From the NCBI GenBank assembly GCA_944383265.1, contig CALWOX010000005.1, positions 79,863 through 143,862 of the forward strand: a stretch of 64,000 nucleotides of DNA. Direction: 5' to 3'. The notes beneath the pieces are model-generated. The model worked only from the letters and a program-made list of their open reading frames with translations. It had not been told where the DNA came from and ran no database searches. The DNA comes from an uncultured Lachnospiraceae bacterium. Its GTDB lineage: Bacteria > Bacillota > Clostridia > Lachnospirales > Lachnospiraceae. Shown here in pieces: positions 9,322 to 50,598 of the stretch; positions within the stretch are counted from its first letter, which is position 1; each line of letters begins with the position of its first letter. The translations under genes and the position numbers were made by a program.

Positions 9322-10275
9322 ATGTCATCTAAAATAAGGCCTGTATTTCAGGCGGTTTGGACAGCTCTCACAAACGGATATGTGAGAGGCTTTATGGAAG
9401 GAAAAATATATCAGGGAGAATCAAAGAAGCTTTGTGTTCCGGGGCTTAATTGCTACTCTTGCCCCGGAGCGCGTTTTGCCTGTCCTATAGGCTCGCTTCA
9501 GGCCGTGCTTGACTCGGGACAATACAGGATAAGCCTGTATGTGCTGGGCTTCATGGCAGCCTTCGGAGTGCTTTTAGGGAGGTTCGTATGCGGATGGCTG
9601 TGTCCCTTCGGCTTTGTCCAGGATCTGCTTTATAAGATACCGATAGGATATAAGAAGGGAGCAGGACAGAGGAAAGGACCGGAAGCCGGAGGGAAAAGCA
9701 AGGACGGCTGCACAAGCCGTGTAAAGAGAAAAAACTTACCCGGACACAAATATCTCATATATCTTAAGTATGTAATACTTGCCTTTTTCGTTGTGATACT
9801 GCCTATGACTGTAACGAACTTTATGGGTATGGGAGATCCGTGGTTCTGCAAATACGTATGTCCGAGCGGGACTCTTCTTGCAGGCATTCCCATGCTTATC
9901 ATGAATGAGCCTTTGAGAGGAGCCATAGGAGCTTTGTTTTCATGGAAGACCTTTATACTGGTCGTGGTGGTTTTGCTGTCGATATGGTATTATCGGCCTT
10001 TCTGCAAGTATCTTTGTCCGTTGGGAGCCTTTTACGGCTTCTTTAACAAGGCGGCCTTTTACAGGCTTAATGTAAATGAAGACAAGTGTATAAAATGCGG
10101 AAAATGTCAGTCGGCGTGCGGCATGGATATTAAAACATGGGAGAATCCGAACAGTATGGAATGTATACGATGCGGAGACTGCAAGACTGCATGTCCTACA
10201 GGAGCGATCACATCGAGCATGGAGGAATTGATACGAGAGCTGAAGAGCAAGGGATCGAAGGAAGTATCCTCATGA
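9322..10275 (+). CDS. membrane-bound 4Fe-4S binding protein (NapH/YccM-like polyferredoxin)
   Basis: 317 aa. It has several TM segments, paired CxxC/CP motifs in the membrane part (CYSCPGARFACP, CGWLCPFG, CKYVCPSG, CKYLCPLG) and a C-terminal 2x[4Fe-4S] motif (CIKCGKCQSAC, CIRCGDCKTACP). Confidence 0.8.
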   Translation: MSSKIRPVFQAVWTALTNGYVRGFMEGKIYQGESKKLCVPGLNCYSCPGARFACPIGSLQAVLDSGQYRISLYVLGFMAAFGVLLGRFVCGWLCPFGFVQDLLYKIPIGYKKGAGQRKGPEAGGKSKDGCTSRVKRKNLPGHKYLIYLKYVILAFFVVILPMTVTNFMGMGDPWFCKYVCPSGTLLAGIPMLIMNEPLRGAIGALFSWKTFILVVVVLLSIWYYRPFCKYLCPLGAFYGFFNKAAFYRLNVNEDKCIKCGKCQSACGMDIKTWENPNSMECIRCGDCKTACPTGAITSSMEELIRELKSKGSKEVSS

Positions 10276-14974: not shown

Positions 14975-15499
14975 ATGGACAGCAGAGTATTTTGGGACTT
15001 GTCGTATGGAGTTTATATCACAACGGTCATGGATGGTGAGAGGCCTACAGGCTGCGTCACCAATTCCGCAATGCAGATAACCTCGGAGCCTGCAACTATA
15101 GCCGTCAGTGTAAACCACGACAACTATACAAACGGCTGCATAGAAAAGTCAGGCAAATTTGCGGTATGCATATGCAGCGAGGCCACAAAGCCTCTTACCA
15201 TAGGGACTTTCGGCTTTCGTTCGGGAAGGGATTTTAATAAGTTTGACGACATTCCCTATGAGATGAAAGCAGGGCTTCCCATTGTCAGAGACAGCATAAA
15301 CGGATATGTGGTCTGCGAGGTGATAAACAAGCTGGAGACGGACACACATACGGTATTTCTCGGAAGGGTTATGGAATCGGAGCGCTTTGATATCGGCTCA
15401 AAGCCTATGACCTATGCTTATTATCATGAGGTGGTAAAGGGAAGGGCTCCTAAGAATGCACCTACCTACATCGATCCCGAGAAGTTGGGAGAAAAGTAG
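14975..15499 (+). CDS. flavin reductase-like (flavoredoxin) domain protein
   Basis: 174 aa with the flavin-reductase-like fold signature (VYITTVMDGERPTGCVTNSAMQITSEPATIAVSVN). A GAAGGAGG RBS precedes the start. Confidence 0.8.
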   Translation: MDSRVFWDLSYGVYITTVMDGERPTGCVTNSAMQITSEPATIAVSVNHDNYTNGCIEKSGKFAVCICSEATKPLTIGTFGFRSGRDFNKFDDIPYEMKAGLPIVRDSINGYVVCEVINKLETDTHTVFLGRVMESERFDIGSKPMTYAYYHEVVKGRAPKNAPTYIDPEKLGEK

Positions 15500-16838: not shown

Positions 16839-17618
16839 ATGAACGACATTGATAACATTCACGACAAAGTGAGAGATGATTATAAACAGATACTGGCGGA
16901 GCCCGGAAACTCCGTACTTTCAGTAAGTACAGCTGATTCCTCTGTGGCTGAGGCTGTAGGCTACAGCCTTGAGGAGCTTGCTTCTGTCCCCGAGGAGGCA
17001 AATCGAGGACTCGGATGCGGAAATCCTGTAAGGACAGCCGAGCTTAAGGAGGGAGAGGTAGTACTTGACCTCGGCTGCGGAGCGGGTCTTGATTGCTTTC
17101 TGGCTGCAACAAAGGTCGGAAGGCGAGGGAGAGCTGTGGGTGTCGATATGACCCCTGAAATGCTTGCAGAGGCGAGAAGTATAGCAAAGAAGCACAGGAT
17201 AAGGAATGTGGAATTCAGGCTCGGTGAGATAGAAAATCTTCCCGCCGCAGACAATTTTGCGGATGTATGCATCTCTAACTGCGTAATAAACCTGTCACCT
17301 GACAAGGCGAGAGTATATAGGGAAATATTCAGGATATTGAAGCCCGGAGGAAGGATATCAATATGCGATATCATTATTAAGAAGAGCCTCCCGGATGATA
17401 TCAAAAATGATGCCGATATGTATTCCTGCTGAGTAAGCGGAGCGTCTTCAGTTGAAGACCTTGAACGACTCATCAAATTTGCGGGATTTGAGGATGTCAA
17501 GATAAAAGAAAAGCCCTTGTCCCGAGAATATGAGGAGAGATGGGGCGGCAGTAAGGCTGTGGGTGAGTATATAATGTCGTCATCGATAATGGCAAGAAAG
17601 CCTGAGGGACATCATTAA
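16839..17618 (+). CDS. ArsM/UbiE-like SAM-dependent methyltransferase, probably a selenoprotein (in-frame UGA at 17430-17432 read as Sec)
   Basis: The SAM motif is VLDLGCGAGLD and the ArsM-like motif is ISNCVINL. The track ORF stops at a TGA after DADMYSC. The same frame then stays open for 61 more codons (VSGASSVEDLERLIKFAGFEDVKI...) to the TAA at 17616-17618. The UGA aligns with the conserved Cys of the ArsM C-(I/V/L)-(A/G)-G-A motif. A hairpin starts 11 nt after the UGA. Confidence 0.7.
17441..17462 (+). promoter_or_regulatory. candidate bacterial SECIS hairpin
   Basis: GTCTTC-AGTT-GAAGAC, a 6-bp stem with a G-containing tetraloop at 17444-17459, extendable by A-U and G-U pairs across a C-C mismatch. 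It begins 11 nt downstream of the UGA. Confidence 0.5.
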
Positions 17619-17684
17619 GAGTATTTTCAAAAATTATAAGAAATAGCCTTTTATCAAGGCTCTAAAGAGATTATAAAAATGAAT

Positions 17685-17732
17685 AAAAAAGCAGGTCTAT
17701 CGCATCAAAATGAGGTGATAGGCCTGCTTTTT
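17685..17732. terminator. bidirectional intrinsic terminator between the methyltransferase and the MarR gene
   Basis: An A-run, then the stem GCAGGTCTATC / GATAGGCCTGC with one G-U pair, then a T-run. It serves the convergent genes on both sides. Confidence 0.75.
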
Positions 17733-17751: not shown

Positions 17752-18207
17752 TTATGTTGATTTCTTAAAATCCAAATATGAGGGAACAATGTTTGCATCC
17801 ATAGTTAAAAGTATATTATAGAACATATCCAATTCATCCTCGGAAACTCCCGAGTATAGTTTTTCGAGAGGAGATGTAACGGAATCTTCCATGCTGTCAT
17901 TCAGCTTTTTTCCTTCATCCGTTATAAAGAGAATCCACTCCTTTTTATTGTTTTCCGGATGAACCTTTTTGATGTATCCCTTATCAATAAGCTTTTTCAA
18001 AGCTTTTGCTGTAGTGGAACGGTCCACCTTAAGGATATATGAAAGGGTCTCTTGGTTGATACCGGGGTTTTCATCTATTCTTGTCAAAAATGAATGCTGG
18101 CCTCGTGTAAGACCGAATTTTACAAATTGTCCTTCTCTTATCGCATCAAGACATCTGCAGACGTCAAGCATGCACCTTGTTATGGTACGAAAATCTTTGT
18201 TATTCAT
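17752..18207 (-). CDS. MarR family transcriptional regulator
   Basis: 151 aa from MNNKDFRTITRCMLDV. The winged-HTH region is LTRGQHSFLTRIDENPGINQETLSYILKVDRSTTAKALKKLIDKGYI. I set the start at the ATG at 18207, which is preceded by AGGGAGAG. The 34-codon upstream extension in the track is AT-rich and lacks an RBS. Confidence 0.85.
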   Translation of the reverse strand: MNNKDFRTITRCMLDVCRCLDAIREGQFVKFGLTRGQHSFLTRIDENPGINQETLSYILKVDRSTTAKALKKLIDKGYIKKVHPENNKKEWILFITDEGKKLNDSMEDSVTSPLEKLYSGVSEDELDMFYNILLTMDANIVPSYLDFKKST

Positions 18208-18347
18208 AGCTTCTCTCCCTTTTACTAAATAATACTTGAAAAGGAAACAAAAAGCAATCAAAAAGATAAAATGATATGGTCTTAAGGCAGGAAACACAAA
18301 AAGATGCATAAATAATCAAAAAAACTATAGAATTTACATAAAAAATA

Positions 18348-33000: not shown

Positions 33001-34440
33001 ATGGAAAAGAATCGAGACATTTACCAAAGCCCGTTCTCGGGAAGATATGCGGGCAAGGAGATGCTTTATACCTTTTCGGAGAATTTCAAATTCAGGACAT
33101 GGAGAAAGCTGTGGATAGCTCTTGCGGAGACGGAAAAGGAGCTGGGACTGCCCATTACAGACGAGCAGATAGCCGAGCTTAAGGAGCACGCGGAGGATAT
33201 AAACTACGCTGACGCCGAGGCCAGAGAGAAGGTGGTCCGCCATGATGTCATGAGCCATGTTTACGCTTACGGGCTTCAGTGTCCCAAGGCGGCGGGCATC
33301 ATTCATCTGGGAGCCACATCAGCCTTTGTGGGAGACAACACGGATATCATACAGATGAGGAGAGGACTTGACCTTGTACACAAGTCCCTGGTAAATGTAA
33401 TAACGGAGCTTTCGAAGTTTGCCTTAAAGTATAAGGATGTGCCCACTCTTGCCTTCACTCATTTCCAGCCGGCACAGCCTACCACTATCGGAAAGAGAGC
33501 TACGCTCTGGATACAGGATCTCATGATGGATCTTTCTGACCTTGAGTATGTAAGGGGAAGCCTTAAGCTCCTTGGCTCAAAGGGAACTACAGGAACTCAG
33601 GCAAGCTTTCTTGAGCTTTTTGACGGAGACCATAAAAAGTGCAAGGAGGCTGACAGGCGCATAGCCGAGAAGCTTGGATTTTCTGACTGCTACGATGTGT
33701 CCGGACAGACCTACTCGAGAAAGGTGGATTTCCGCGTGCTTTCCGTACTTTCGGGAATCGCACAGTCTGCACATAAGTTTTCCAATGATATAAGGCTTTT
33801 GCAGAATTTGAAGCAGATCGAGGAGCCCTTTGAAAAGACACAGATAGGTTCTTCGGCTATGGCATATAAGAGAAATCCCATGCGCTCGGAGAGGATGGCG
33901 TCCATCGCAAACTATGTAATGAGCGATATCATGAACCCGTCGATCACAGCGGCAACCCAGTGGTTTGAGAGGACTCTTGATGACTCTGCAAATAAGAGGA
34001 TATCAGTTCCCGAGGCATTCCTCGGAGTTGATTCCATATTGAGGCTTTACATGAATATTGCCGACGGCCTTGTTGTTTACACAAAGGTATGTGAAAAGTA
34101 TCTTAAGGCCGAGCTTCCCTTCATGGCCACAGAGAACATAATGATGGACTGTGTAAAGAGAGGCGGAAACCGCCAGGAGCTTCATGAGAGGATAAGAGAG
34201 CTCTCCATGGAGGCCGGAAAGAGAGTAAAGGAGGAGGGACTTGACAACAATCTCCTTGATCTCATAGCCGCAGACAAGACCTTCGGGCTTGAGAGAGCTG
34301 ATATAGAAAAGCTCCTTGATCCCAAGCTCTATGTCGGAAGAGCGCCGAGACAGACTGAGGAATACATTAAAAATGTGGTTGAGCCCAAGCTTGCATCCTA
34401 CAGCTCTGAACTGGGGCTTGAGGCGGAGATATCACTTTAA
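33001..34440 (+). CDS. purB: adenylosuccinate lyase
   Basis: 479 aa with the fumarate-lyase signature GSSAMAYKRNPMRSE and an N-terminus typical of long-form PurB (YQSPFSGRYAGKEM). Confidence 0.95.
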   Translation: MEKNRDIYQSPFSGRYAGKEMLYTFSENFKFRTWRKLWIALAETEKELGLPITDEQIAELKEHAEDINYADAEAREKVVRHDVMSHVYAYGLQCPKAAGIIHLGATSAFVGDNTDIIQMRRGLDLVHKSLVNVITELSKFALKYKDVPTLAFTHFQPAQPTTIGKRATLWIQDLMMDLSDLEYVRGSLKLLGSKGTTGTQASFLELFDGDHKKCKEADRRIAEKLGFSDCYDVSGQTYSRKVDFRVLSVLSGIAQSAHKFSNDIRLLQNLKQIEEPFEKTQIGSSAMAYKRNPMRSERMASIANYVMSDIMNPSITAATQWFERTLDDSANKRISVPEAFLGVDSILRLYMNIADGLVVYTKVCEKYLKAELPFMATENIMMDCVKRGGNRQELHERIRELSMEAGKRVKEEGLDNNLLDLIAADKTFGLERADIEKLLDPKLYVGRAPRQTEEYIKNVVEPKLASYSSELGLEAEISL

Positions 34441-34489
34441 TAAATTATTATTGACTTTTTATGCTTGTATAATGTATGCTTTTTAGTAC

Positions 34490-34518
34490 TTGATGAAGAG
34501 ACCCTGTTTAATTATAAT
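34490..34518 (+). promoter_or_regulatory. candidate promoter of the pur operon leader
   Basis: TTGATG (34490-34495), 17 nt, TATAAT (34513-34518). A second TATAAT at 34468-34473 has no well-spaced -35. Confidence 0.4.
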
Positions 34519-34722
34519 AGGGCGTATCCCCTTTTTTAGGAGACAAGCTTTTTATTGTGAGAGGAATGTCATGATAGGTATGAAGGCTGAAGCTGCTGAA
34601 TACGGATGGACAGGCATGATAGCTCATGGTGTCAGGCAGGAGATAAAGGGGACCGGTATAGGCTTTTTTATAAGCTCATACTGCAGACAGAGGCAGATAG
34701 TGTATATAAAAACAGTATAAAT

Positions 34723-34753
34723 AAGAGCAGTCTGAAAAGGACTGCTCTTTTTG
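34723..34753 (+). terminator. intrinsic terminator inside the purE leader (candidate attenuator)
   Basis: Perfect 9-bp stem AGAGCAGTC / GACTGCTCT with a 7-nt loop, then TTTT. It lies about 80 nt upstream of the purE ATG and about 280 nt downstream of the purB stop. Confidence 0.75.
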
Positions 34754-34833
34754 TCGCTGTTTTAAGTCAGTGCTTTATGACTGTTCTGACTGAAAAAAGG
34801 CTTATGAGAGGCTTAAATTTTAGGAGGGAATAA

Positions 34834-35331
34834 ATGAGAAAAGTAGGAATCATCATGGGGAGCGACAGCGATTTCCCCGTAGTTGAGAAGGCTGTAAATA
34901 CATTGAAGGAGTATGGCGTGCCGGTTAGCGTGCATGTTTATTCGGCCCACAGGACTCCCGCCGAAGCAAAGAGCTTTGCCGAGAACGCCAGAAAGGAGGG
35001 CTACGGAGCCCTTATATGCGCGGCAGGTATGGCGGCGCACCTTGCAGGAGCTATAGCGGCAAATACGACGCTCCCTGTAATAGGCATACCCATAAAGGCA
35101 AAGGCTCTTGAGGGGATAGACGCACTGCTTTCCACAGTTATGATGCCCCCCGGAATACCTGTTGCAACAGTCGGCATAGACGGAGCTCAGAATGCGGCGC
35201 TTATTGCTGTAGAGATACTTTCAGTTGAGGACGAGGGACTTGCCGTAAAGCTTCAGGAGGCAAGGGACAAGAAGGCGGCAGCCATCCTTTCAAAGGATAA
35301 GGAGCTTTCGGAGAAATATTCAAATCTGTAA
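34834..35331 (+). CDS. purE: N5-carboxyaminoimidazole ribonucleotide mutase (class I PurE)
   Basis: 165 aa with the motifs IMGSDSD and SAHRTP (class I-type). An AGGAGGG RBS precedes the start. Confidence 0.93.
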
Positions 35332-35351
35332 AAATTGACTTTGGAGACAAG

Positions 35352-36851
35352 ATGAAGAGAAAGATAAATGAAGAATGCGGTGTCTTCGGCGTATGGTCAC
35401 CGAAGAAAACAGATGTTGCTTTGACCACCTACTACGGCCTTTATGCATTGCAGCACAGAGGACAGGAAAGCGCAGGAATTGCTGTAAACGACGAGGGGCT
35501 TTTCAGATACTACAGAGATCTGGGACTTGTAAACGATGTTTTCACTCCTGAGCATATAGAAAAGCTTGGAGACGGAAATATGGCTGTGGGCCATGTGAGA
35601 TATTCCACCTCAGGTATAACAAACAGAATAAACGCACAGCCCATAGTTATAAACCACAGCAAGGGCAGGATGGCCCTTGCCCACAACGGGAACCTTGTAA
35701 ATTCATATGAGCTGAGAACAGAGCTTGAGAATCAGGGCTGCATATTCCAGTCCACCACAGACACAGAAGTCATTTCATATATAATCACAGGCGAGAGGAT
35801 AAAGACAGGCAGCATAGAGGACGCTGTAAATAACGCCATGAACAAGATAAAGGGAGCATATTCCCTTGTGATAATGTCACCCTCAAAGCTCATTGCCGTC
35901 AGAGACGAGCACGGCTTCAGGCCTCTCTGCTACGGTGTTACAGAGGACGGAACATATATCGTTGCCTCGGAGAGCTGTGCCCTTGATGCTGTGGGAGCAA
36001 AGCTCATAAGGGATATAAAGCCCGGAGAGATACTTATATTCAGCGACGAGGGAATAAGGAGCATTGAGGACCATTGCAATAAGGCAAAGCCCAGCCTCTG
36101 TGTATTCGAGTATATATATTTTGCAAGGCCTGACTCTGTGATAGAGGGCTGCAGTGTCCACGAGGCGAGAGTGAGAGCGGGAGCCTTCCTTGCCCTCGAG
36201 CATCCCGTGCAGGCCGACGTGGTCATAGGTGTGCCTGATTCCGGAATAGACGCCGCCATAGGTTATTCCAGACAGTCCGGTATCCCTTATGGAGTGGGAC
36301 TTATAAAAAATAAATATATAGGAAGGACCTTCATAGCTCCCAACCAGAAATCAAGAGAAAATCTCGTAAGGATAAAGCTCAACCCCATATCAGAGGTAAT
36401 AAAGGGAAAGAGGGTCATACTTATAGATGACTCCATAGTAAGAGGAACCACCTCCGCAAGGATAGTAAAGCTCATAAGAGAGGCGGGGGCAAAGGAGGTA
36501 CACATGAGAGTCTCGGCTCCTCCATTCCTTAATCCTTGCTATTACGGAACAGATATAGACTCAAGAGAAAACCTCATTGCCTGTAAGTACAGCGTCGAGG
36601 AGACAGCAAAGATAATAGGAGCAGACTCTCTCGGATACCTTTCTGTGGGAAATGCCCTTGAGATAGCAAAGGGAGCGGCAGGAAACGGAAGCTTCTGTGC
36701 GGCATGCTTCAGCGGAGAATATCCCACAGAGATACCTACAAAGACAGAGAAAAACAGATTTGAGGATAAGCTCCCCAAATACAGAAACAAACCTGATAGA
36801 TCAGAGGATTCAGATAATAAAGACGCTTTGGCGGGAAAGGCGGAGAACTAA
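35352..36851 (+). CDS. purF: amidophosphoribosyltransferase
   Basis: 499 aa. The Ntn-amidotransferase Cys lies in NEECGVFGV and the PRTase motif is VILIDDSIVRGTT. C-terminal Cys residues are consistent with an Fe-S-type PurF. Confidence 0.95.
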   Translation: MKRKINEECGVFGVWSPKKTDVALTTYYGLYALQHRGQESAGIAVNDEGLFRYYRDLGLVNDVFTPEHIEKLGDGNMAVGHVRYSTSGITNRINAQPIVINHSKGRMALAHNGNLVNSYELRTELENQGCIFQSTTDTEVISYIITGERIKTGSIEDAVNNAMNKIKGAYSLVIMSPSKLIAVRDEHGFRPLCYGVTEDGTYIVASESCALDAVGAKLIRDIKPGEILIFSDEGIRSIEDHCNKAKPSLCVFEYIYFARPDSVIEGCSVHEARVRAGAFLALEHPVQADVVIGVPDSGIDAAIGYSRQSGIPYGVGLIKNKYIGRTFIAPNQKSRENLVRIKLNPISEVIKGKRVILIDDSIVRGTTSARIVKLIREAGAKEVHMRVSAPPFLNPCYYGTDIDSRENLIACKYSVEETAKIIGADSLGYLSVGNALEIAKGAAGNGSFCAACFSGEYPTEIPTKTEKNRFEDKLPKYRNKPDRSEDSDNKDALAGKAEN

Positions 36852-37894
36852 TGAAAAGCTACAGTGAAAGCTACAAGAATGCGGGAGTTGATATCACCGC
36901 GGGATACAAGGCTGTAGATCTCATGAAGGAGCACATAAAGAGGACCATGACAGCGGGAGTGGTTTCAGATATAGGAGGCTTCGGAGGTCTCTTCGAGCTG
37001 CCGGAGGGCTATAAAAAGCCCGTCCTTGTATCAGGGACAGACGGAGTCGGAACAAAGCTTAAGCTCTCATTCCTCATGGAGAAATATGATACAGTTGGAA
37101 TAGACTGCGTGGCAATGTGTGTAAACGACATTATCTGCTGCGGAGCAAAGCCCCTCTTCTTCCTTGATTACATAGCTTGCGGAAAAAATATTCCTGAGAG
37201 GATAGCAGAGATAGTAAAGGGAGTGGCAGACGGCTGCGTAATGGCTGATGCGGCACTTATAGGCGGTGAGACAGCTGAGATGCCGGGCTTTTATCCCGAG
37301 GATGAGTTTGACCTTGCAGGCTATTCTACGGGAATAGTTGATAAGGAAAAGATAGTGGACAACAGCTCCATGACAGAAGGCGATGTGATAATAGCTCTCC
37401 CCTCAAGCGGAGTACATTCAAACGGATTTTCTCTTGTAAGAAAAGTATTTGACCTTGATAATATTGATAAAGCCGAACTTAAAAGGCCCCTCCCCGAGCT
37501 TTCGGGAAAGAGTCTCGGAGAGACTCTTCTCACTCCCACCAAGATATATGTAAAGCCTGTACTAAAGCTCCTTGAGGAAATAAAGGTAAAGGGCATATCA
37601 CATATCACAGGCGGAGGCTTTTATGAGAACATTCCCAGATCCTTAAAGAAGGGCATGGGAGCCTTTATAAAGAAATCAGATGTAAGGATACTTCCGATTT
37701 TCAAGCTCATTGCCGAAAAGGGTGGTATATCGGAGCACGATATGTTCAACACCTACAACATGGGTGTGGGAATGAGTATAGTTGTTGCGGCTGAGGATGC
37801 GGACAGAGCCCTTGAGATACTTAAAGCAAACGGAGAGGACGCATATATCCTCGGAAGGATAGGAGCCTCAGAGGATCCTGTAGTTTTGGAGTAA
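36851..37894 (+). CDS. purM: phosphoribosylformylglycinamidine cyclo-ligase (AIR synthetase)
   Basis: 347 aa with the motifs SGTDGVGTKLK and GGETAEMPG. The start overlaps the purF stop (TAATG). Confidence 0.95.
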   Translation: MKSYSESYKNAGVDITAGYKAVDLMKEHIKRTMTAGVVSDIGGFGGLFELPEGYKKPVLVSGTDGVGTKLKLSFLMEKYDTVGIDCVAMCVNDIICCGAKPLFFLDYIACGKNIPERIAEIVKGVADGCVMADAALIGGETAEMPGFYPEDEFDLAGYSTGIVDKEKIVDNSSMTEGDVIIALPSSGVHSNGFSLVRKVFDLDNIDKAELKRPLPELSGKSLGETLLTPTKIYVKPVLKLLEEIKVKGISHITGGGFYENIPRSLKKGMGAFIKKSDVRILPIFKLIAEKGGISEHDMFNTYNMGVGMSIVVAAEDADRALEILKANGEDAYILGRIGASEDPVVLE

Positions 37895-37897
37895 GCC

Positions 37898-38545
37898 ATG
37901 GGAGAGGAAAAAAGGATAAAGACGGCAGTCCTCATATCAGGAGGAGGGACGAACCTTCAGGCCCTTATTGACGCACAAAAAAGCGGAGTCATCCGCCACG
38001 CCGAGATATGTGCCGTAATATCGAATAAGGCTGATGCTTACGGACTTGTGAGAGCGGAAAATGCGGGAATTCCACATTTTGTTGCAGAGAAGGAAAAGGC
38101 TGAGGATACGGATACTGCGGACGACAGGGAAAGAAAGCAGCACGAGTTCGAGGAGAGGATAGAAGAGATAATCGAGAGTACAGGAGCAAAAATAATTGTC
38201 CTTGCGGGCTTTCTCGCCATATTAAGTGAGAACTTTACTTCAAAATATCCCGAAAGGATAATAAACATACATCCTTCTCTCATACCTTCGTTTTGCGGAA
38301 AGGGCTACTACGGACTTAAGGTCCACGAGGCGGCCTTAAGCTACGGAGTCAAGGTCACAGGAGCCACGGTGCATTTTGTAAATGAGGTTCCTGACGGAGG
38401 AAGGATAATCCTCCAGAAGGCTGTGTATATAAAGGACGGAGACACACCTGAAATACTTCAGAAGAGAGTTATGGAGGAGGCCGAGTGGGAGCTTCTTCCG
38501 AGAGCTCTGGAGCTTGTATCCGAGAAGATGACAAAGGAAATATAA
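37898..38545 (+). CDS. purN: phosphoribosylglycinamide formyltransferase
   Basis: 215 aa with the motifs AVLISGGGTNLQALID, NIHPSLIPSFCG and GATVHFV. An insert of about 20 aa rich in acidic residues (EKAEDTDTADDRERKQHEFEE) lies mid-protein. Confidence 0.92.
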   Translation: MGEEKRIKTAVLISGGGTNLQALIDAQKSGVIRHAEICAVISNKADAYGLVRAENAGIPHFVAEKEKAEDTDTADDRERKQHEFEERIEEIIESTGAKIIVLAGFLAILSENFTSKYPERIINIHPSLIPSFCGKGYYGLKVHEAALSYGVKVTGATVHFVNEVPDGGRIILQKAVYIKDGDTPEILQKRVMEEAEWELLPRALELVSEKMTKEI

Positions 38546-38567
38546 TTCATTTTAAGAGGTGAGGCAA

Positions 38568-39308
38568 ATGAACGATACGTATGCTTTAAACGATATAGAA
38601 AAGCTCCTTTCGGAAAATACCTACCCCGGAAGAGGCATAATACTCGGAATGACACCAGACTGCAAGAAGGCTGTAGCTGTTTACTTCATAATGGGAAGAA
38701 GCGAGAACAGCAGAAACCGAGTTTTTGAGGAGACAGGAGATGATCTTATAATTTATCCTGCCGACGAGAGCAAGGTGGAGGACCCCAGCCTTATCATATA
38801 TAAGCCCGTGCGTAAGTTTGAAAACAGGCTTATAGTGACAAACGGAGACCAGACAGATACGATATACGAATTTTTGGAGGCCGGAAAAAGCTTCGGAGAG
38901 GCACTCTCCACAAGGTGCTTCGAGCCGGATGCCCCCAACTACACGCCGAGGATAAGCGGAATGCTCACCTTCTTTGAGGAGGAGGGAAGTGTATGCTTTA
39001 AGTATAAGATGTCTATACTTAAATCAGCTGACAGCGAGGGAAGCGCCTGCAACAGATTTACCTACAGCTATTCTCCAATAGGAGGAACAGGACATTTCCT
39101 TCATACCTACAAGTGCGACGGAAATCCCATCCCTACATTTGAAGGGGAGCCTGAGAGGGTAAAGGTTGAAAACGACATAGACGCATACTCAAAAAAGATA
39201 TGGGACAGCTTAAATCCCGACAACAAGATATCCCTTTATGTCAGATATGTGGATATAGCAACAGGCGAGTGTGAGAACAGATTGTTCAACAAGAACGTGA
39301 GAAAATAA
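38568..39308 (+). CDS. IMP cyclohydrolase, PurO-like (archaeal-type, non-PurH)
   Basis: About 246 aa with the N-terminal YPGRGIILGMTPD region I associate with the PurO-type IMP cyclohydrolase family. It sits between purN and an AICARFT-only purH. I set the start at the ATG at 38568, after GAGGTGAGG. Confidence 0.75.
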   Translation: MNDTYALNDIEKLLSENTYPGRGIILGMTPDCKKAVAVYFIMGRSENSRNRVFEETGDDLIIYPADESKVEDPSLIIYKPVRKFENRLIVTNGDQTDTIYEFLEAGKSFGEALSTRCFEPDAPNYTPRISGMLTFFEEEGSVCFKYKMSILKSADSEGSACNRFTYSYSPIGGTGHFLHTYKCDGNPIPTFEGEPERVKVENDIDAYSKKIWDSLNPDNKISLYVRYVDIATGECENRLFNKNVRK

Positions 39309-39354
39309 TAAGAGCTTTAAGATTTATAAAGTACCTGAGAAAAGGAGAACGGTA

Positions 39355-40539
39355 ATGAAGGAATTTCAGTTAAAGTACGGATGCAATCCCAACCAGAAGC
39401 CCTCAAGGCTGTATATGGCTGACGGAAGCGACCTCCCCTTTGAGATTTTAAACGGAAGGCCCGGATATATAAACTTTCTTGACGCTTTAAATTCATGGCA
39501 GCTTGTAAAGGAACTTAAGGAGGCCTTAGGACTCCCTGCGGCAACCTCCTTCAAGCATGTTTCCCCCACCTCTGCGGCAGTAGGAAGAAAACTGTCACCG
39601 GAGCTCAAGAAGGCATGCTTTGCGGATGATATAGAGGGACTTGACGATTCTCCTCTTGCCTGCGCTTATGTGAGAGCCAGAGGAACAGACAGGATGAGCT
39701 CCTTCGGAGACTGGATAGCTCTCTCGGATAAGTGCGACGTCACTACCGCAAATATAATAAAGAGAGAGGTATCAGACGGAATAATCGCTCCTGATTATGA
39801 CGAGGAGGCTCTTGAGATACTCAAGTCAAAGAAAAAGGGAAACTACAATGTAGTAAAGATAGACCCTGAATATATTCCTGCTGAGGCAGAACATAAGGAA
39901 GTTTTCGGAATAACTTTCGAGCAGGGAAGAAATAATTTCAAGATCAATGAGGCGCTTTTGGGAAATATAGTTACAGAAAACAAGATACTTCCCGACAGCG
40001 CAAAGAGAGATCTCATCATCGCTCTTATAACCTTAAAGTATACACAGTCAAATTCAGTCTGCTTTGCGGCGGACGGACAGGCTATAGGTGTAGGCGCAGG
40101 ACAGCAGTCGAGGATACACTGCACAAGGCTTGCGGGACAGAAGGCTGATATCTGGCATTTGAGACAGTCTGAAAAGGTCCTCTCACTTCCCTTTAAGAAG
40201 GAGCTCGGAAGGGCTGACAGGGACAATGTAATAGATGTATATATCTCCGATGAATGCGACGATGTCCTCAGCGAGGAGAACTGGAGAAACTACTTTACGG
40301 AGAGGCCAGAGCCCTTTACAAAAGCGGAGCAGAAGGAGTACCTCTCAAAGATAACCGGCGTGGCTCTCGGCTCCGACGCCTTCTTCCCATTCGGAGATAA
40401 TATTGAGAGGGCAAGAAAATCGGGAGTCAGCTACATAGCTCAGCCCGGCGGAAGCGTAAGAGACGACAATGTCATAAAGACCTGCAACAAGTACGGCATG
40501 ACAATGTGCTTTACGGGAATGAGGCTTTTCCATCATTAA
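39355..40539 (+). CDS. purH: AICAR formyltransferase (PurH C-terminal-domain-only form)
   Basis: 394 aa. The AICARFT-like sequence includes KYGCNPNQ, KHVSPTSAAVG, GVGAGQQSRIHCTRLAG and FFPFGDNIE. The N-terminal MGS-like IMP cyclohydrolase domain of bifunctional PurH is absent. Confidence 0.85.
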   Translation: MKEFQLKYGCNPNQKPSRLYMADGSDLPFEILNGRPGYINFLDALNSWQLVKELKEALGLPAATSFKHVSPTSAAVGRKLSPELKKACFADDIEGLDDSPLACAYVRARGTDRMSSFGDWIALSDKCDVTTANIIKREVSDGIIAPDYDEEALEILKSKKKGNYNVVKIDPEYIPAEAEHKEVFGITFEQGRNNFKINEALLGNIVTENKILPDSAKRDLIIALITLKYTQSNSVCFAADGQAIGVGAGQQSRIHCTRLAGQKADIWHLRQSEKVLSLPFKKELGRADRDNVIDVYISDECDDVLSEENWRNYFTERPEPFTKAEQKEYLSKITGVALGSDAFFPFGDNIERARKSGVSYIAQPGGSVRDDNVIKTCNKYGMTMCFTGMRLFHH

Positions 40540-40627
40540 TCGTTGACCTGAATCTTATTCGGAATGATTCGCAGGTAATCATTATTTAATAATATTTTGA
40601 TGAAAGATATGAAAGGGGGAGATAGCA

Positions 40628-41896
40628 TTGATTACAGCTGTAATAGGCGGAGGCGGAAGAGAGCACGCCATAATAAAGAAGCTTAAGGAAAATAAAGAGA
40701 TAGAAAAGATCTACGCAATTCCCGGAAACGGCGGAATAGCTGAGGATGCGCATTGTGTCGCAATATCCGCCACAGATATAGAGGGCGTTGTGGATTTCTG
40801 CAAGGATAACGGAGTGGAGTACGCTGTGGTTGCTCCTGACGACCCTCTCGTTATGGGAATGGCGGATGAGCTTGAAAAGGCGGGCATTCCCTCCTTCGGA
40901 CCTTCAAAGGCTGCAGCCATAATAGAGGGCTCCAAGGTATTTTCAAAGAATCTTATGAAAAAGTACGGGATACCTACCGCGGCCTATGAGGTATTTTCCG
41001 ATCCGAAGGAGGCATACAGCTATGTTGAGACCTGCCCCCTTCCCACTGTCATAAAGGCGGACGGACTGGCTCTCGGAAAGGGAGTTATCATTGCTGAGAC
41101 AAGAGACGAGGCGAGAGCTGCCGTAAAGACTGTCATGGAGGACAGAAAGTTCGGAAAGAGCGGAGACGAGATCGTTATTGAAGAATTTCTCACAGGCCCT
41201 GAGGTGTCTGTCTTAAGCTTTACAGACGGAAAGACCATGTGCCCAATGGTTTCAAGTATGGATCACAAGAGAGCTCTTGACGGAGACAAGGGCTTAAACA
41301 CAGGTGGAATGGGCACTATCGCACCTAATCCTTACTATACCGAGGACATAGCAAAGGAGTGTATGGAGAAGATATTCCTTCCTACAATGGATGCCATGAA
41401 CAAGGAGGGAAGGACCTTTAAGGGCTGCCTGTATTTCGGGCTTATGCTGACGGAAAACGGACCTAAGGTAATAGAGTATAACTGCCGCTTCGGAGACCCT
41501 GAGACTCAGGTGGTACTGCCCCTTTTAAAGACGGATCTCTTTGAGATAATGAAGGCTGTTACAGAGGAAAGGCTTTCCGAGATAAACATAGAGTGGAAGG
41601 ACGAGGCCGCAGCCTGCGTTATCATAGCTTCAGGCGGATATCCCGAGTCCTACAAGAAGGGCTATCCCATTGAGCTTCCTGAGAACAGAGAGCAGATATA
41701 TGTTGCGGGAGCCGAGCTTAAGGACGGAGTCCTCGTTACCTCGGGAGGAAGAGTCCTCGGAGTTACAGAGACCGCAAAGGAGCTTCCGGAGGCTATAGAA
41801 AAAGCTTATGAGACTGCTCGAAAGGTGCATTTCACAGACATGCATATGAGAACGGATATAGGAAAGAGAGCTCTTATGGCTCTTTCAGGAAAATAA
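40628..41896 (+). CDS. purD: phosphoribosylamine--glycine ligase
   Basis: 422 aa with VIGGGGREHAI and an ATP-grasp core. The start is TTG, preceded by GGGGGAG. The nearby upstream ATG is out of frame. Confidence 0.93.
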   Translation: MITAVIGGGGREHAIIKKLKENKEIEKIYAIPGNGGIAEDAHCVAISATDIEGVVDFCKDNGVEYAVVAPDDPLVMGMADELEKAGIPSFGPSKAAAIIEGSKVFSKNLMKKYGIPTAAYEVFSDPKEAYSYVETCPLPTVIKADGLALGKGVIIAETRDEARAAVKTVMEDRKFGKSGDEIVIEEFLTGPEVSVLSFTDGKTMCPMVSSMDHKRALDGDKGLNTGGMGTIAPNPYYTEDIAKECMEKIFLPTMDAMNKEGRTFKGCLYFGLMLTENGPKVIEYNCRFGDPETQVVLPLLKTDLFEIMKAVTEERLSEINIEWKDEAAACVIIASGGYPESYKKGYPIELPENREQIYVAGAELKDGVLVTSGGRVLGVTETAKELPEAIEKAYETARKVHFTDMHMRTDIGKRALMALSGK

Positions 41897-41915
41897 AAAT
41901 TTGAACGGAGTAAAT

Positions 41916-44900
41916 ATGGTTTATCGAATTTTTGTAGAAAAAAAGCATGGCCTTGAAAACGAGGCAAAGAGCCTGCTTTCCGATGTGCAGAGCTTCCTGG
42001 GCATAACCGGGCTCAAGGCCGTAAGGCTTTTCAACAGATATGACGTGTCGGGAATATCAGAGGATGTATTTGAGAAGGCTGAGAAAACAGTATTTTCAGA
42101 GCCTCAGCTTGACATTGTCACAAAAGACATGAATGAGGTCAGCGCAAAGGATTATTATACGGATTTCGGAAAGGCCTGTGACAGCGCGGAAAAAGAGGGG
42201 AGCATTGCAAAACTCGGAATATCCGACGATGAAGCCTTTGTCTTTGCGGTGGAATATCTTCCCGGACAGTATGACCAGAGAGCCGACAGCGCTGCCCAGT
42301 GTATACAGATAATATCAGAGGGAGAAAGGCCCGAGGTAAGGACAGCGAGAGTTTACAAGCTTTACGGAAGCCTTACTGAGGCGGATATCGAGGCTATAAA
42401 GAAATATGTCATAAACCCCGTGGAGGCGAGAGAGGCAAAGCTTGAGCCTGTGACAAGCCTCAAGACAGAATATGACATCCCCACAGAGGTTGCGACTGTG
42501 GAGGGCTTTATCTCTCTTTCCGATGACGAGCTTGAGGCCTTAAGGAAAAAGCTTGGACTCGCCATGGACTTTGATGACATAAAGTTCTGCGCGGATTATT
42601 TCAGAACCGAAAAGAGAAATCCCACTATCACAGAGATAAAGATGATAGACACCTACTGGTCTGACCACTGCCGACATACCACCTTCCTTACAACTGTGGA
42701 CAAGGTGACTTTTGAGGACAGGGAAGTAGAGGAGGCATGGAACAGGTATATATCCGTAAGGGATGAGCTCGGCAGGAAAAAGCCTGTAAACTTTATGGAT
42801 ATAGCCACCCTTGCGGCAAAGTATCTCAAGAAGCAGGGAAAGCTTCAGAAGCTTGACGAATCCGAGGAGATCAATGCCTGCACAGTAAAGATAAAGGTAA
42901 ATGTGGATGGCAGGGATGAGGACTGGCTGCTTCTTTTCAAGAACGAGACTCACAACCACCCCACGGAGATAGAGCCCTTCGGAGGTGCCGCAACCTGTAT
43001 AGGCGGAGCCATAAGAGATCCTCTTTCAGGAAGAGCCTATGTATATCAGGCAATGAGAGTCACAGGAGCCGCAGATCCCTTAAAGCCTCTCTCGGAGACC
43101 ATGGAGGGAAAGCTTCCTCAGAGAAAACTTGTGACAACAGCCGCCGCAGGATACTCATCTTACGGAAACCAGATCGGTCTTGCTACAGGAATAGTTGATG
43201 AGATATATCACGACGGATACGCTGCAAAGAGAATGGAGATAGGTGCTGTCGTAGGCGCGGCTCCCGCGGAAAATGTAAGGAGAGAGGTTCCCGCTCCCGG
43301 GGATGCGGTGATACTCCTTGGAGGAAGGACCGGAAGAGACGGCTGCGGAGGAGCTACAGGCTCTTCAAAGGCGCATGACCTCCACTCTATAGAGACCTGC
43401 GGAGCCGAGGTACAAAAAGGTAATGCTCCTGAAGAGAGAAAGCTCCAGAGGCTTTTCAGAAATAAAGACGCTTCACTTATGATAAAGCGCTGCAATGACT
43501 TCGGCGCCGGTGGAGTTTCCGTTGCCATAGGAGAGCTTGCCGACGGACTCTTTATAGATCTTAACAAGGTCCCCAAGAAGTATGAGGGACTTGACGGAAC
43601 GGAGCTTGCCATATCCGAGTCGCAGGAGAGGATGGCTGTAGTTGTCGCTCCCGAGGATGTGGATAGATTTATGGAGATAGCTCACAGCGAGAACCTCGAG
43701 GCTACAGTAGTCGCCGAGGTAAGGAAGGATCCCCGCCTTGTTATGACATGGAACGGCAAAAATATCGTTGACATAAGCAGGGAATTCCTGAATTCAAACG
43801 GAGCGGAAAAGCATATCGATATCCTTGTGGAAAAGCAGGAGGATGTTGTAAACGGAAGCACTTTGGAGGATAAGGCGGGTCATTCCTTCAAGGAGAGACT
43901 TACAGAACTCTCAAAAGACCTTAACATATGTTCAAAGAAGGGACTTTCAGAGCGTTTTGACTCTACAATAGGAGCGGGAAGCATACTTATGCCCTTCGGA
44001 GGAAAATATCAGCTCACACCTGTTCAGGCAATGGCTGCAAAGGTATCCGTCGAGAAGGCTGATACGGATACCTGCTCGATGATGGCATGGGGATACAATC
44101 CCTTCCTCACAGAGAAGAATCAGTACAGAGGAGCGTACCTTGCTGTTGTGGAGTCTGTTTCAAAGCTAATAGCATCGGGAGCAGGATTTGAGGATGTTTA
44201 CCTCACCTTCCAGGAGTACTTTGAAAAGCCCGGAACAGAGGGAGAGCGTTGGGGCAAGCCCTTGGCGGCTCTTCTGGGGGCCTTTGAGGCGCAGCTTGAC
44301 CTTGAAGCGGCGGCAATAGGCGGAAAGGACAGCATGAGCGGAAGCTTTGAAAAGCTTGACGTGCCTCCTACCCTTGTATCCTTTGCCGTTACTGCCGAGA
44401 AGGCGGAAAATGTTATCTCCCCCGAATTTAAAAATGCGGGCTCAACAGTCCTTCTCATGAAGCCTCACTATAAGGAAAACGGGCTTCCCTGTATGGATTC
44501 CTTAAAGAAGCTTTACGATACAGTCCATAAGGCTGTTGCAAACAAGAAGATCATTTCGGCATACACTCCTTGTCAGGGCGGAGTTGCAGAGGCGGTTATG
44601 AAGCAGTGCTTCGGAAATATGACAGGCTTTGGATATGATAAAGAAATAAGCGCCGACGAGCTCTTCGGATATTGCTACGGAGCATTTGTAGTTGAGACCG
44701 ACAGCACCGAGACGGCTGAGGCTATACTTGACTGTGAGACTGTTAAGAGCGGAGCCTTCGATGTAAAGAAACTTGGAATTACTACAGAAGAAAAGACGAT
44801 AGTTCTCGGAAATGAGAGCGTTGATCTTTCAGAGCCCCTTTGCTCCTATGAGGAAAAACTTGAGCCTGTATTTGCCTGCAACAGAACAGGAGCGGATGAG

Positions 44901-45776
44901 CCTGCTGCAGAGCAAAAGGACATAAGTCTTCCCGAGCACGAGGCAAAGACATGGGCCAAGCCTATGGTAAGATCGGCTGTGCCTAAGGTACTGATACCTG
45001 TATTCCCGGGAACAAACTGTGAGTATGACAGCGCAAAGGCTGTGGCTGCGGCAGGACTTGAGCCTGATATTCAGATAATCAGAAATCTTACCGCAGATGA
45101 CATAAAGGAGTCTGTGGAGAGGGTATCAAAGGCTATAGCGGAAAGCAATATAATCTTTATTCCGGGAGGCTTCTCGGGAGGAGATGAGCCCGACGGTTCC
45201 GCAAAGTTTATAACCTCATTTTTCAGAAATGAGAGGATAAGGGAAGAGGTGGACAAGCTCCTTGATACAAGGGACGGACTCATGTGCGGAATCTGTAACG
45301 GTTTCCAGGCCCTTATAAAGCTCGGACTTGTTCCCTTCGGAAGGATAACGGATACAGATGAAAGCTGCCCTACACTTACATACAATACCATAGGAAGACA
45401 CCAGTCAAAGATAGTAACACTGAGGGTGGTTTCAAACAAGTCCCCCTGGCTTATGAACACAAAACCCGGAGAACTCTACAAGGTTCCCGTTTCCCATGGA
45501 GAGGGAAGATTCCTTGCAACAGAGGAGCTTGTTAAGAAGCTTTCGGATAACGGACAGATTGCAACTCAGTATGCGGATCTTTGCGGAAATCCTACCATGG
45601 ATATAAGATACAATCCTAACGGCTCTGTATATGCCATTGAAGGAATCACCTCGCCTGACGGCAGGGTATTCGGAAAGATGGGACATGCGGAGAGGATAGG
45701 AAAGCTGCTCTACAAGAATGTTCCCGGAGAGTATGATATGGGAATGTTCAGAGGAGCAAAGAAATATTTTGAGTAG
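41916..45776 (+). CDS. purL: phosphoribosylformylglycinamidine synthase, single-chain large form (PurS-PurL-PurQ fused)
   Basis: About 1286 aa. It has a PurS-like N-terminus, the FGAM synthetase core (HNHPTEIEPFGGAATCIGG) and a C-terminal class I amidotransferase (CGICNGFQAL, VSHGEGRF). I set the start at the ATG at 41916. Confidence 0.94.
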   Translation: MVYRIFVEKKHGLENEAKSLLSDVQSFLGITGLKAVRLFNRYDVSGISEDVFEKAEKTVFSEPQLDIVTKDMNEVSAKDYYTDFGKACDSAEKEGSIAKLGISDDEAFVFAVEYLPGQYDQRADSAAQCIQIISEGERPEVRTARVYKLYGSLTEADIEAIKKYVINPVEAREAKLEPVTSLKTEYDIPTEVATVEGFISLSDDELEALRKKLGLAMDFDDIKFCADYFRTEKRNPTITEIKMIDTYWSDHCRHTTFLTTVDKVTFEDREVEEAWNRYISVRDELGRKKPVNFMDIATLAAKYLKKQGKLQKLDESEEINACTVKIKVNVDGRDEDWLLLFKNETHNHPTEIEPFGGAATCIGGAIRDPLSGRAYVYQAMRVTGAADPLKPLSETMEGKLPQRKLVTTAAAGYSSYGNQIGLATGIVDEIYHDGYAAKRMEIGAVVGAAPAENVRREVPAPGDAVILLGGRTGRDGCGGATGSSKAHDLHSIETCGAEVQKGNAPEERKLQRLFRNKDASLMIKRCNDFGAGGVSVAIGELADGLFIDLNKVPKKYEGLDGTELAISESQERMAVVVAPEDVDRFMEIAHSENLEATVVAEVRKDPRLVMTWNGKNIVDISREFLNSNGAEKHIDILVEKQEDVVNGSTLEDKAGHSFKERLTELSKDLNICSKKGLSERFDSTIGAGSILMPFGGKYQLTPVQAMAAKVSVEKADTDTCSMMAWGYNPFLTEKNQYRGAYLAVVESVSKLIASGAGFEDVYLTFQEYFEKPGTEGERWGKPLAALLGAFEAQLDLEAAAIGGKDSMSGSFEKLDVPPTLVSFAVTAEKAENVISPEFKNAGSTVLLMKPHYKENGLPCMDSLKKLYDTVHKAVANKKIISAYTPCQGGVAEAVMKQCFGNMTGFGYDKEISADELFGYCYGAFVVETDSTETAEAILDCETVKSGAFDVKKLGITTEEKTIVLGNESVDLSEPLCSYEEKLEPVFACNRTGADEPAAEQKDISLPEHEAKTWAKPMVRSAVPKVLIPVFPGTNCEYDSAKAVAAAGLEPDIQIIRNLTADDIKESVERVSKAIAESNIIFIPGGFSGGDEPDGSAKFITSFFRNERIREEVDKLLDTRDGLMCGICNGFQALIKLGLVPFGRITDTDESCPTLTYNTIGRHQSKIVTLRVVSNKSPWLMNTKPGELYKVPVSHGEGRFLATEELVKKLSDNGQIATQYADLCGNPTMDIRYNPNGSVYAIEGITSPDGRVFGKMGHAERIGKLLYKNVPGEYDMGMFRGAKKYFE

Positions 45777-50489: not shown

Positions 50490-50598
50490 TAAAGTCTTTA
50501 AGTATTATTTTCGGAATTTTTGGAAAATATCCGTATGAATAACTGAATATATTACATAAAAAACGATATATTATTTAAAATTGAAAGAGGACATAAAA

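Follow-up and report, generated by a model that had tools for sequence, protein, structure and literature searches.

Enzymes of the ArsM/AS3MT family bind trivalent arsenic, As(III), through three cysteines (Cys), namely Cys72, Cys174 and Cys224 in CmArsM, which correspond to Cys61, Cys156 and Cys206 in human AS3MT (PMC4211708). Proteins have been assigned to ArsM by the presence of an S-adenosylmethionine (SAM) domain together with at least three of the four Cys equivalent to CmArsM 44, 72, 174 and 224 (PMC5552862). Forms containing selenocysteine (Sec, U) have been catalogued as well. The 2008 Global Ocean Sampling study reported 8 Sec and 245 Cys sequences of an arsenite S-adenosylmethyltransferase (PRK11873; Zhang & Gladyshev, PMC2398784), and "Arsenite methyltransferase, UxxG", with WP_011987699.1 as the representative of the family, appears among the experimentally verified entries in Table 1 of a review of prokaryotic selenoproteomes from 2026 (Zhang et al., PMC13188914), which gives Fomenko et al. 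2007 (Science 315:387) as its source. Here we describe a gene of this family in a stretch of 64,000 nucleotides (nt), hereafter the window, from an uncultured Lachnospiraceae bacterium (GenBank assembly GCA_944383265.1, contig CALWOX010000005.1, positions 79,863 to 143,862 of the forward strand). Judging from sequence comparison, the gene very probably encodes an ArsM/AS3MT-family selenoprotein, in which the UGA at window positions 17430–17432 specifies Sec at the equivalent of the Cys224 ligand and is followed by a hairpin resembling a selenocysteine insertion sequence (SECIS). It is an unannotated member of a selenoprotein family that has been known since 2007, and neither the family nor the position of the Sec is new.

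Reading frame and family assignment

An open reading frame (ORF) of 197 codons runs from the ATG at 16839 to the TGA at 17430–17432, with a translation ending in ...DADMYSC. As a preliminary description of this DNA had claimed, the same frame then stays free of stops for a further 61 sense codons (VSGASSVEDLERL...KPEGHH) up to the TAA at 17616–17618. The complete continuation after the TGA is VSGASSVEDLERLIKFAGFEDVKIKEKPLSREYEERWGGSKAVGEYIMSSSIMARKPEGHH, and reading through the TGA gives a product of 259 residues, including U198. The split into two separate ORFs was considered and rejected: the tail starts with GUA AGC GGA right after the UGA, and inspection by eye, with no dedicated test, revealed neither an obvious start codon in frame nor an obvious ribosome-binding site.

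A six-frame scan of the window found no other TGA-split frame with a protein-like continuation, the rest being off-frame or of low complexity. The arrangement is more than chance, since it is the sole such split frame in the window and since the TGA, the open continuation and the hairpin are all found again in 22/22 related genes. A separate case was noted at 9322–10275, where the ORF of a 4Fe-4S (Fer4_5-type) membrane protein ends in a TGA at 10273 that is followed by 52 open codons. That continuation does not look like protein, and we took the TGA as an ordinary stop.

For profile searches, U198 was entered as Cys. The product scored 304.6 bits against the NCBIfam model NF008823 (arsenite methyltransferase; curated cut-off 263), with residues 3–256 matching positions 3–269 of the 272 in the profile, which bears out the suggestion that the read-through product has the size normal for its family. 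The version of 197 amino acids (aa) would drop the last ~60 positions of this profile. Matches were also obtained to the Pfam domains Methyltransf_31 (PF13847; 1.3e-39, residues 70–216), Methyltransf_25 (PF13649) and Methyltransf_11 (PF08241), with domain starts at residues 70–76.

The closest relatives in the PDB are the ArsM structures 5EVJ and 4FR0/4FS8. Aligned to 4FR0, U198 falls on Cys224 of CmArsM, C148 on Cys174 and C60 on Cys72, and no equivalent of Cys44 was present in the aligned protein. With Sec counted as a Cys equivalent, the protein thus has three of the four residues by which ArsM has been delimited (PMC5552862). It is a full-length ArsM-family protein.

Sec/Cys pairing and conservation of the tail

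A protein search yielded thousands of relatives. Among the best 120, at ~70–75% identity, nearly all were called as proteins of 193–197 aa, and NCBI records from metagenome-assembled genomes contain relatives as a 195-aa "methyltransferase domain-containing protein". These public gene calls, which stop at the TGA, favour the view that the TGA is a genuine stop, which would make the gene a truncated methyltransferase or pseudogene with a relic of open frame downstream. The DNA of the homologues tells otherwise. In 164 genome and metagenome loci, the U198 column had TGA in 17 cases and a Cys codon in 146, with no recognisable motif in the remaining one, and in all TGA forms (hereafter Sec forms) the frame stayed open through a conserved tail, VSGASSVEEL...S+EYEEKWG...GEYIMS. 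The metagenome scan contributed almost solely environmental Cys forms, plus five Sec-form loci (L085-L087, L119 and L131). Look-ups of exact proteins gave 8 further distinct Sec-form genes, resulting in 22 distinct Sec forms including that of the window. They were aligned with 147 Cys forms by MAFFT, giving a set of 169 distinct genes whose columns are numbered after the window protein.

In this alignment, the U198 column is TGA in 22/22 related Bacillota genes and Cys in 147/147 other homologues. The proposal that the UGA stands at the Cys column, as a Sec/Cys signature, is thus upheld, the column being the one that aligns to CmArsM Cys224. The sequence context proposed along with it needs correction: the column is followed not by (A/G)-G-A after the hydrophobic residue, but by [V/I/L]-[S/A]-G-A, with Ser in 84, Ala in 58 and Gly in 4 of the Cys forms.

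Selection on the tail was assessed from the ratio of nonsynonymous to synonymous differences per site (pN/pS), calculated by the Nei-Gojobori method for all pairs. The median pN/pS was 0.33 after the UGA (codons 199–256, 210 pairs), on par with the 0.28 before it (codons 11–197, 231 pairs), while synonymous sites were saturated (pS ~0.8). Purifying selection in the face of such saturation implies that the tail was being translated all the while these lineages diverged. A relic would instead have gathered stops, frameshifts and nonsynonymous changes, and yet the tail is intact in all 22 lineages. Truncation would moreover deprive the enzyme of one of its three metalloid ligands and of 61 C-terminal residues that the family profile matches, and it leaves the conservation of TGA in every Sec form, at a column that is otherwise Cys, unaccounted for. 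This genome might have lost Sec decoding very recently, but an identical, intact gene is found in four independent assemblies. We consider a genuine stop very unlikely.

Two checks that had been proposed, namely whether homologues end at the TGA and whether the downstream codons resemble the family, can be answered from these data. The lengths of the database proteins suggest such an end, but the DNA shows continuation in frame; the downstream codons belong to the NF008823 match, which extends to residue 256, and are conserved and under selection. The ends at the TGA in the database proteins are a gene-calling artefact: the underlying genes all continue in frame, and their tail is under purifying selection.

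The SECIS-like hairpin

The model for bacterial SECIS elements (bSECIS) comprises an apical loop of 3–9 nt, an upper stem of 4–16 base pairs (bp), a G in the first two loop positions, a distance of 16–37 nt between UGA and loop, and a minimum free energy (MFE) of at most −7.5 kcal/mol (Zhang & Gladyshev 2005, in PMC13188914). The 6-bp hairpin previously proposed at SECIS spacing is located at 17444–17459 and begins, as had been stated, 11 nt after the UGA. It is kept in 22/22 Sec forms and agrees with three of the four bSECIS constraints, its free energy being borderline. Loop size, stem, loop G and spacing fit the model (AGUU, 6 bp, 17 nt), the loop beginning 17 nt after the UGA with the G at loop position 2. 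All 22 Sec-form genes carry the sequence GCN-UCUUC-[A/G]GUN-GAAGA-N in one register. An automated scan found a compliant hairpin in 21/21 distinct Sec forms, 19 of them in the exact register of the window, versus any compliant hairpin in 86 of 142 Cys forms, where the positions were scattered.

Because the stem overlaps a conserved peptide, A-S-S-V-E-E/D, synonymous sites were taken as an internal control. Codon entropy was zero in only two of the 102 conserved degenerate codon columns, Ser203 (UCU, 22/22) and Glu206 (GAA, 22/22), and these are the codons that lie wholly inside the two stem arms. The remaining five conserved Ser columns use three to four codons each, and the remaining conserved Glu columns mix GAA and GAG. 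At the closing pair, formed by the third bases of Ala202 and residue 207, U-A occurs 12 times, C-G three times and G-C twice, with five unpaired cases; GAG is always accompanied by GCC, and GAC (in the window and L172) always by GCG. The pair shows five double changes, a number reached in 0/500 shuffles. The synonymous-site control argues against the explanation of the whole stem signal by protein-level conservation. As read from the alignment, conservation of the additional lower-stem pairs of the window hairpin (17441-17461 and 17442-17460) does not extend to other lineages.

Evidence that the tail is translated says nothing about which residue is inserted. The UGA might thus be read through without selenium, by a near-cognate tRNA or a Cys-charged tRNA(Sec) inserting Trp or Cys, a view to which the unverified Sec machinery also lends itself. 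The combination of UGA in all Sec forms at an otherwise Cys-only column with a hairpin at SECIS spacing and GU in its loop is, however, a SelB-dependent signature. If Cys sufficed, a UGY codon would be only one mutation away and far more efficient, and the family is catalogued as a selenoprotein. Selenium-free read-through is accordingly improbable, though a small chance is left to it.

Genetic code, Sec machinery and transcription unit

A further explanation would be the use of TGA as a sense codon by the organism, for Trp (code 4) or Gly (code 25). Two database homologues with Trp at the Sec column, at loci L165 (P0005) and L166 (P0032), could be cited in its favour. Their DNA has TGA at this column, neither protein is obtained by translation with code 11, and the Trp is evidently an annotation artefact of code 4 gene calls on short contigs, which masks selenoproteins as Trp proteins. 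TGA ends 8 of the 49 large ORFs in the window, including homologues of hisS and an rRNA methyltransferase, and there are 133 TGG codons for Trp; this ordinary use of TGA and TGG excludes a code with TGA as a sense codon. There is also no second gene in the window with an internal TGA and a protein-like continuation, and the homologous residue is Cys rather than Trp or Gly. This explanation is effectively refuted, its probability being close to nil.

The transcription unit appears to extend beyond the TGA. Between TGA and TAA, a terminator scan found no terminator-like site on the plus strand, and ~70 nt past the TAA, between the convergent methyltransferase and MarR genes, there is a long hairpin (17686–17732) that the simple terminator scan missed. 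It is likely the bidirectional intrinsic terminator of the transcription unit.

Genes for selA, selB, selD and tRNA-Sec were not found in the 64-kb window (ARAGORN, 0 tRNAs; Rfam, 0 matches; 10 ORFs of SelA/B/D-like size scanned). Those 10 ORFs are purB, purF, purM, purH, purD, hisS, aspS, an rRNA methyltransferase and two without a match. This null result, which would also suit a truncated gene, is uninformative, since the window covers a few percent of the genome. The use of Sec is widespread among Clostridia. From this wide use and from the evolutionary signatures described above, we infer that the organism is competent for Sec.

Assessment and proposed mechanism

Besides the Sec machinery not found in the window, several other observations weigh against the selenoprotein interpretation. 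The free energy of the window hairpin is −5.9 kcal/mol for the core, −7.0 in a context of 21 nt and −10.1 in a context of 40 nt with the lower stem, and core stems elsewhere range from −3.1 to −5.9 kcal/mol, weaker than the bSECIS threshold of −7.5. Five of the six stem pairs are invariant, so that covariation rests on the single closing pair, and the overlap with the conserved peptide makes nucleotide conservation in part a matter of the protein. Rfam gave no match to a SECIS or tRNA-Sec in a gathering-threshold scan of the whole window or in a permissive scan of 17300–17700, where chance miRNA and snoRNA matches alone appeared (E > 1); this null is uninformative, as Rfam holds no model for such a short hairpin in a coding region. 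Finally, the substrate is uncertain, because the clade of the window gene lacks an ars operon context. No ars genes were found in the ±10 kb around the gene, either in the window or in five long contigs of the same branch (L167, L169, L170, L172 and L173), which agrees with the earlier remark that the gene lies outside an ars operon.

Taking both sides together, we hold the reading of the UGA as Sec in an ArsM-family selenoprotein to be highly probable, and the doubt that remains stems from the unverified Sec machinery of the organism. In the mechanism envisaged, a ribosome nearing the UGA would encounter the hairpin at 17444–17459 (loop AGUU, 17 nt downstream), which would recruit SelB-GTP-Sec-tRNA(Sec), and Sec would be inserted at the UGA in place of termination. 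Sec198 would then take the third metalloid ligand position (CmArsM Cys224) and, together with Cys148 (Cys174) and Cys60 (Cys72), could bind a trivalent metalloid beside the SAM site for methyl transfer. Sec as the inserted residue, binding of SelB to the hairpin, and As(III) or its methylated form MAs(III) as the substrate are the parts of this mechanism that we infer. The coordinates of the features concerned are given in Table 1.

Table 1. Features of the predicted Sec-containing methyltransferase gene and its surroundings, in window coordinates.
Feature	Position	Strand	Remarks
Predicted complete selenoprotein coding sequence, ArsM-family SAM-dependent methyltransferase	16839..17618	+	259 codons (UGA = Sec at codon 198) plus TAA stop
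In-frame UGA (predicted Sec198), replaces metalloid-binding Cys, motif U-V-S-G (UxxG)	17430..17432	+	
Cys197 codon TGC, directly 5' of Sec198	17427..17429	+	
Cys148 codon, motif ISNCVINL, equivalent to CmArsM Cys174	17280..17282	+	By alignment; invariant in 169/169
Cys60 codon, motif GLGCGNP, equivalent to CmArsM Cys72	17016..17018	+	By alignment; invariant in 169/169
SAM-binding motif I, VLDLGCGAG, residues 75-83	17061..17087	+	D77, L78, G79, G81 and G83 invariant
Core SECIS-like hairpin GUCUUC-AGUU-GAAGAC, 6 bp, 4-nt loop	17444..17459	+	In MFE fold
Lineage-specific extended hairpin, pairs A17441-U17461 and G17442-C17460 below bulged C17443	17441..17461	+	MFE fold
Long A-run/stem/U-run hairpin (likely terminator), ~18 bp perfect	17686..17732	.	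MFE −37.4 kcal/mol, z = −6.1, 0/200 shuffles as good

A predicted Cys-Sec dyad and the loss of N-terminal Cys

The Sec forms differ from the Cys forms in more than the residue at column 198. A Cys stands directly before the Sec (position −1, S/A-C-U) in 16 of the 22 Sec forms and at position −2 (C-G-U) in the other six, so that all of them have a Cys at one of these positions, versus 2/147 Cys forms. Conversely, any Cys in the N-terminal columns 20–50 is found in 7/22 Sec forms versus 147/147 Cys forms. The "CC" pair present in most Cys forms (column 26 in 121/147, column 27 in 129/147) is absent from the Sec forms (0/22 at both columns). The ligand set of the Sec clade accordingly consists of the equivalents of Cys72, Cys174 and, as Sec, residue 224; a vicinal Cys is added and Cys44 is absent.

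A neighbour-joining tree groups all 22 Sec forms into one clade, within which the C-G-U group is nested. The pattern may therefore go back to a single ancestral event and not to repeated selection. It is possible, if rather doubtful, that the Sec-ArsM clade represents a mechanistically rewired enzyme that goes beyond the plain exchange of Sec for Cys. A Cys-Sec selenenylsulfide could take over the role of the Cys44-Cys72 disulfide in reducing the methylated pentavalent intermediate. Alternatively, the site could have been retuned for another soft substrate in gut anaerobes, such as MAs(III), selenide/tellurite or a thiol. The dyad may be undescribed, as the catalogue gives UxxG alone as the motif. 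Both this dyad and the missing N-terminal Cys pair are, in our view, modest leads.

Genomic context

Upstream of the gene lie genes for carbamoyl-phosphate synthase, a flavin reductase (14975–15499) and an M20/M28 peptidase. Downstream, the convergent MarR regulator (17752–18309, minus strand) is followed by two Gate-domain genes and peptidases. In the clostridial branch of the Sec forms, ArsR regulators occur next to the gene: Paraclostridium benzoelyticum has the order ArsR, metallophosphoesterase (calcineurin-like), ArsM (L029:1815-3588), and in Clostridium niameyense ArsR is located directly upstream of ArsM (L034:2574-3597). The adjoining ArsR speaks in favour of the family having a metalloid-responsive role.

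A flavin reductase-like gene (PF01613) occurs a few genes from Sec-ArsM in three lineages, namely in the window (at the position given above), at L167:11549-11983 and at L173:5154-5588. The latter two also have Fur and rubrerythrin genes alongside it. Such company may point to a redox or oxidative-stress neighbourhood, or may be a coincidence. In Clostridium magnum (L012:3847-5186), the genes downstream of Sec-ArsM encode an FmdE-domain/zinc-finger protein and another SAM methyltransferase, unrelated to it.

Elsewhere, the window offers an ordinary housekeeping context. A purine-biosynthesis operon at 33001–45776 contains purB, purF, purM, purH and purD (NCBIfam) and, at 41901–45776, a 1291-aa ORF that is probably purL; hisS (49209–50489) and aspS (50581–52431) come after it. 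The ORFs at 47119–48336 (405 aa) and 59008–60693 (561 aa) had no NCBIfam match at E ≤ 1e-10.

Implications and comparison with described systems

As the family has been known since 2007, the finding opens no new question. Its relevance lies in the public records, which store this gene and many of its gut-bacterial relatives truncated or with a spurious Trp, and hence without the substrate-binding residue. Surveys of arsM or of gut arsenic metabolism that demand the third Cys would miss or misclassify the Sec forms. A predicted Sec-dependent, metalloid-methylating enzyme in common gut Clostridia would also link selenium status to the biotransformation of arsenic or other metalloids.

With the Cys-type enzymes CmArsM (PDB 4FR0/4FS8) and human AS3MT, the window protein has in common the Rossmann SAM domain and the equivalents of Cys72 and Cys174. 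It differs from them in the predicted Sec198 at the third ligand position (Cys224, or Cys206 in human AS3MT), in the absence of a Cys44 equivalent and in the extra vicinal Cys197. Its C-terminal region is short, the protein having 259 aa versus 377–387 aa in the crystallised eukaryotic enzymes.

Like the SECIS of the Escherichia coli fdhF type and the bSECIS consensus, the hairpin lies within the coding region and has a small loop, here of 4 nt, with G and then U at loop positions 2–3. Its stem is much shorter and richer in A/U than theirs, and for this reason the free energy of the core falls short of the −7.5 kcal/mol of the model in most lineages. The upper stem of the fdhF SECIS carries a bulged U, which the window hairpin lacks.

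Selenoproteins in which ArsM is fused to a further domain have reportedly been described by Haft & Tolstoy in 2025: NF041537 (ArsM/AhpD), NF041536 (ArsM/DUF2284) and NF047649 (methyltransferase/UXPK-star). Their N-terminal methyltransferase domain is homologous to the window protein, with 165–180 bits over residues 3–224, and their reported Sec motif is likewise UxxG. The window protein nevertheless scores far below the cut-offs of all three NCBIfam exception models (179.7 vs 510, 172.2 vs 575 and 165.6 vs 460 for NF041537, NF041536 and NF047649, respectively). It has no AhpD, DUF2284 or UXPK-star extension, contains a single predicted Sec and ends at 259 aa.

The closest described system is the catalogued arsenite methyltransferase selenoprotein (NF008823/PRK11873). 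The clostridial relatives from C. magnum, C. niameyense and P. benzoelyticum have the same TGA at 51–55% identity. The window gene belongs to a gut branch of Lachnospiraceae/Oscillospiraceae type with the dyad S-C-U, whereas the clostridial branch has C-G-U, and it has no adjacent ArsR, in contrast to the clostridial loci. The window protein falls in the same profile family as the catalogued one, with a single Sec in the motif U-V-S-G, a case of UxxG. Both are bacterial; in both, the Sec (predicted here, catalogued there) stands where the Cys forms have their catalytic, metalloid-binding Cys, and a SECIS-type hairpin follows directly on the UGA.

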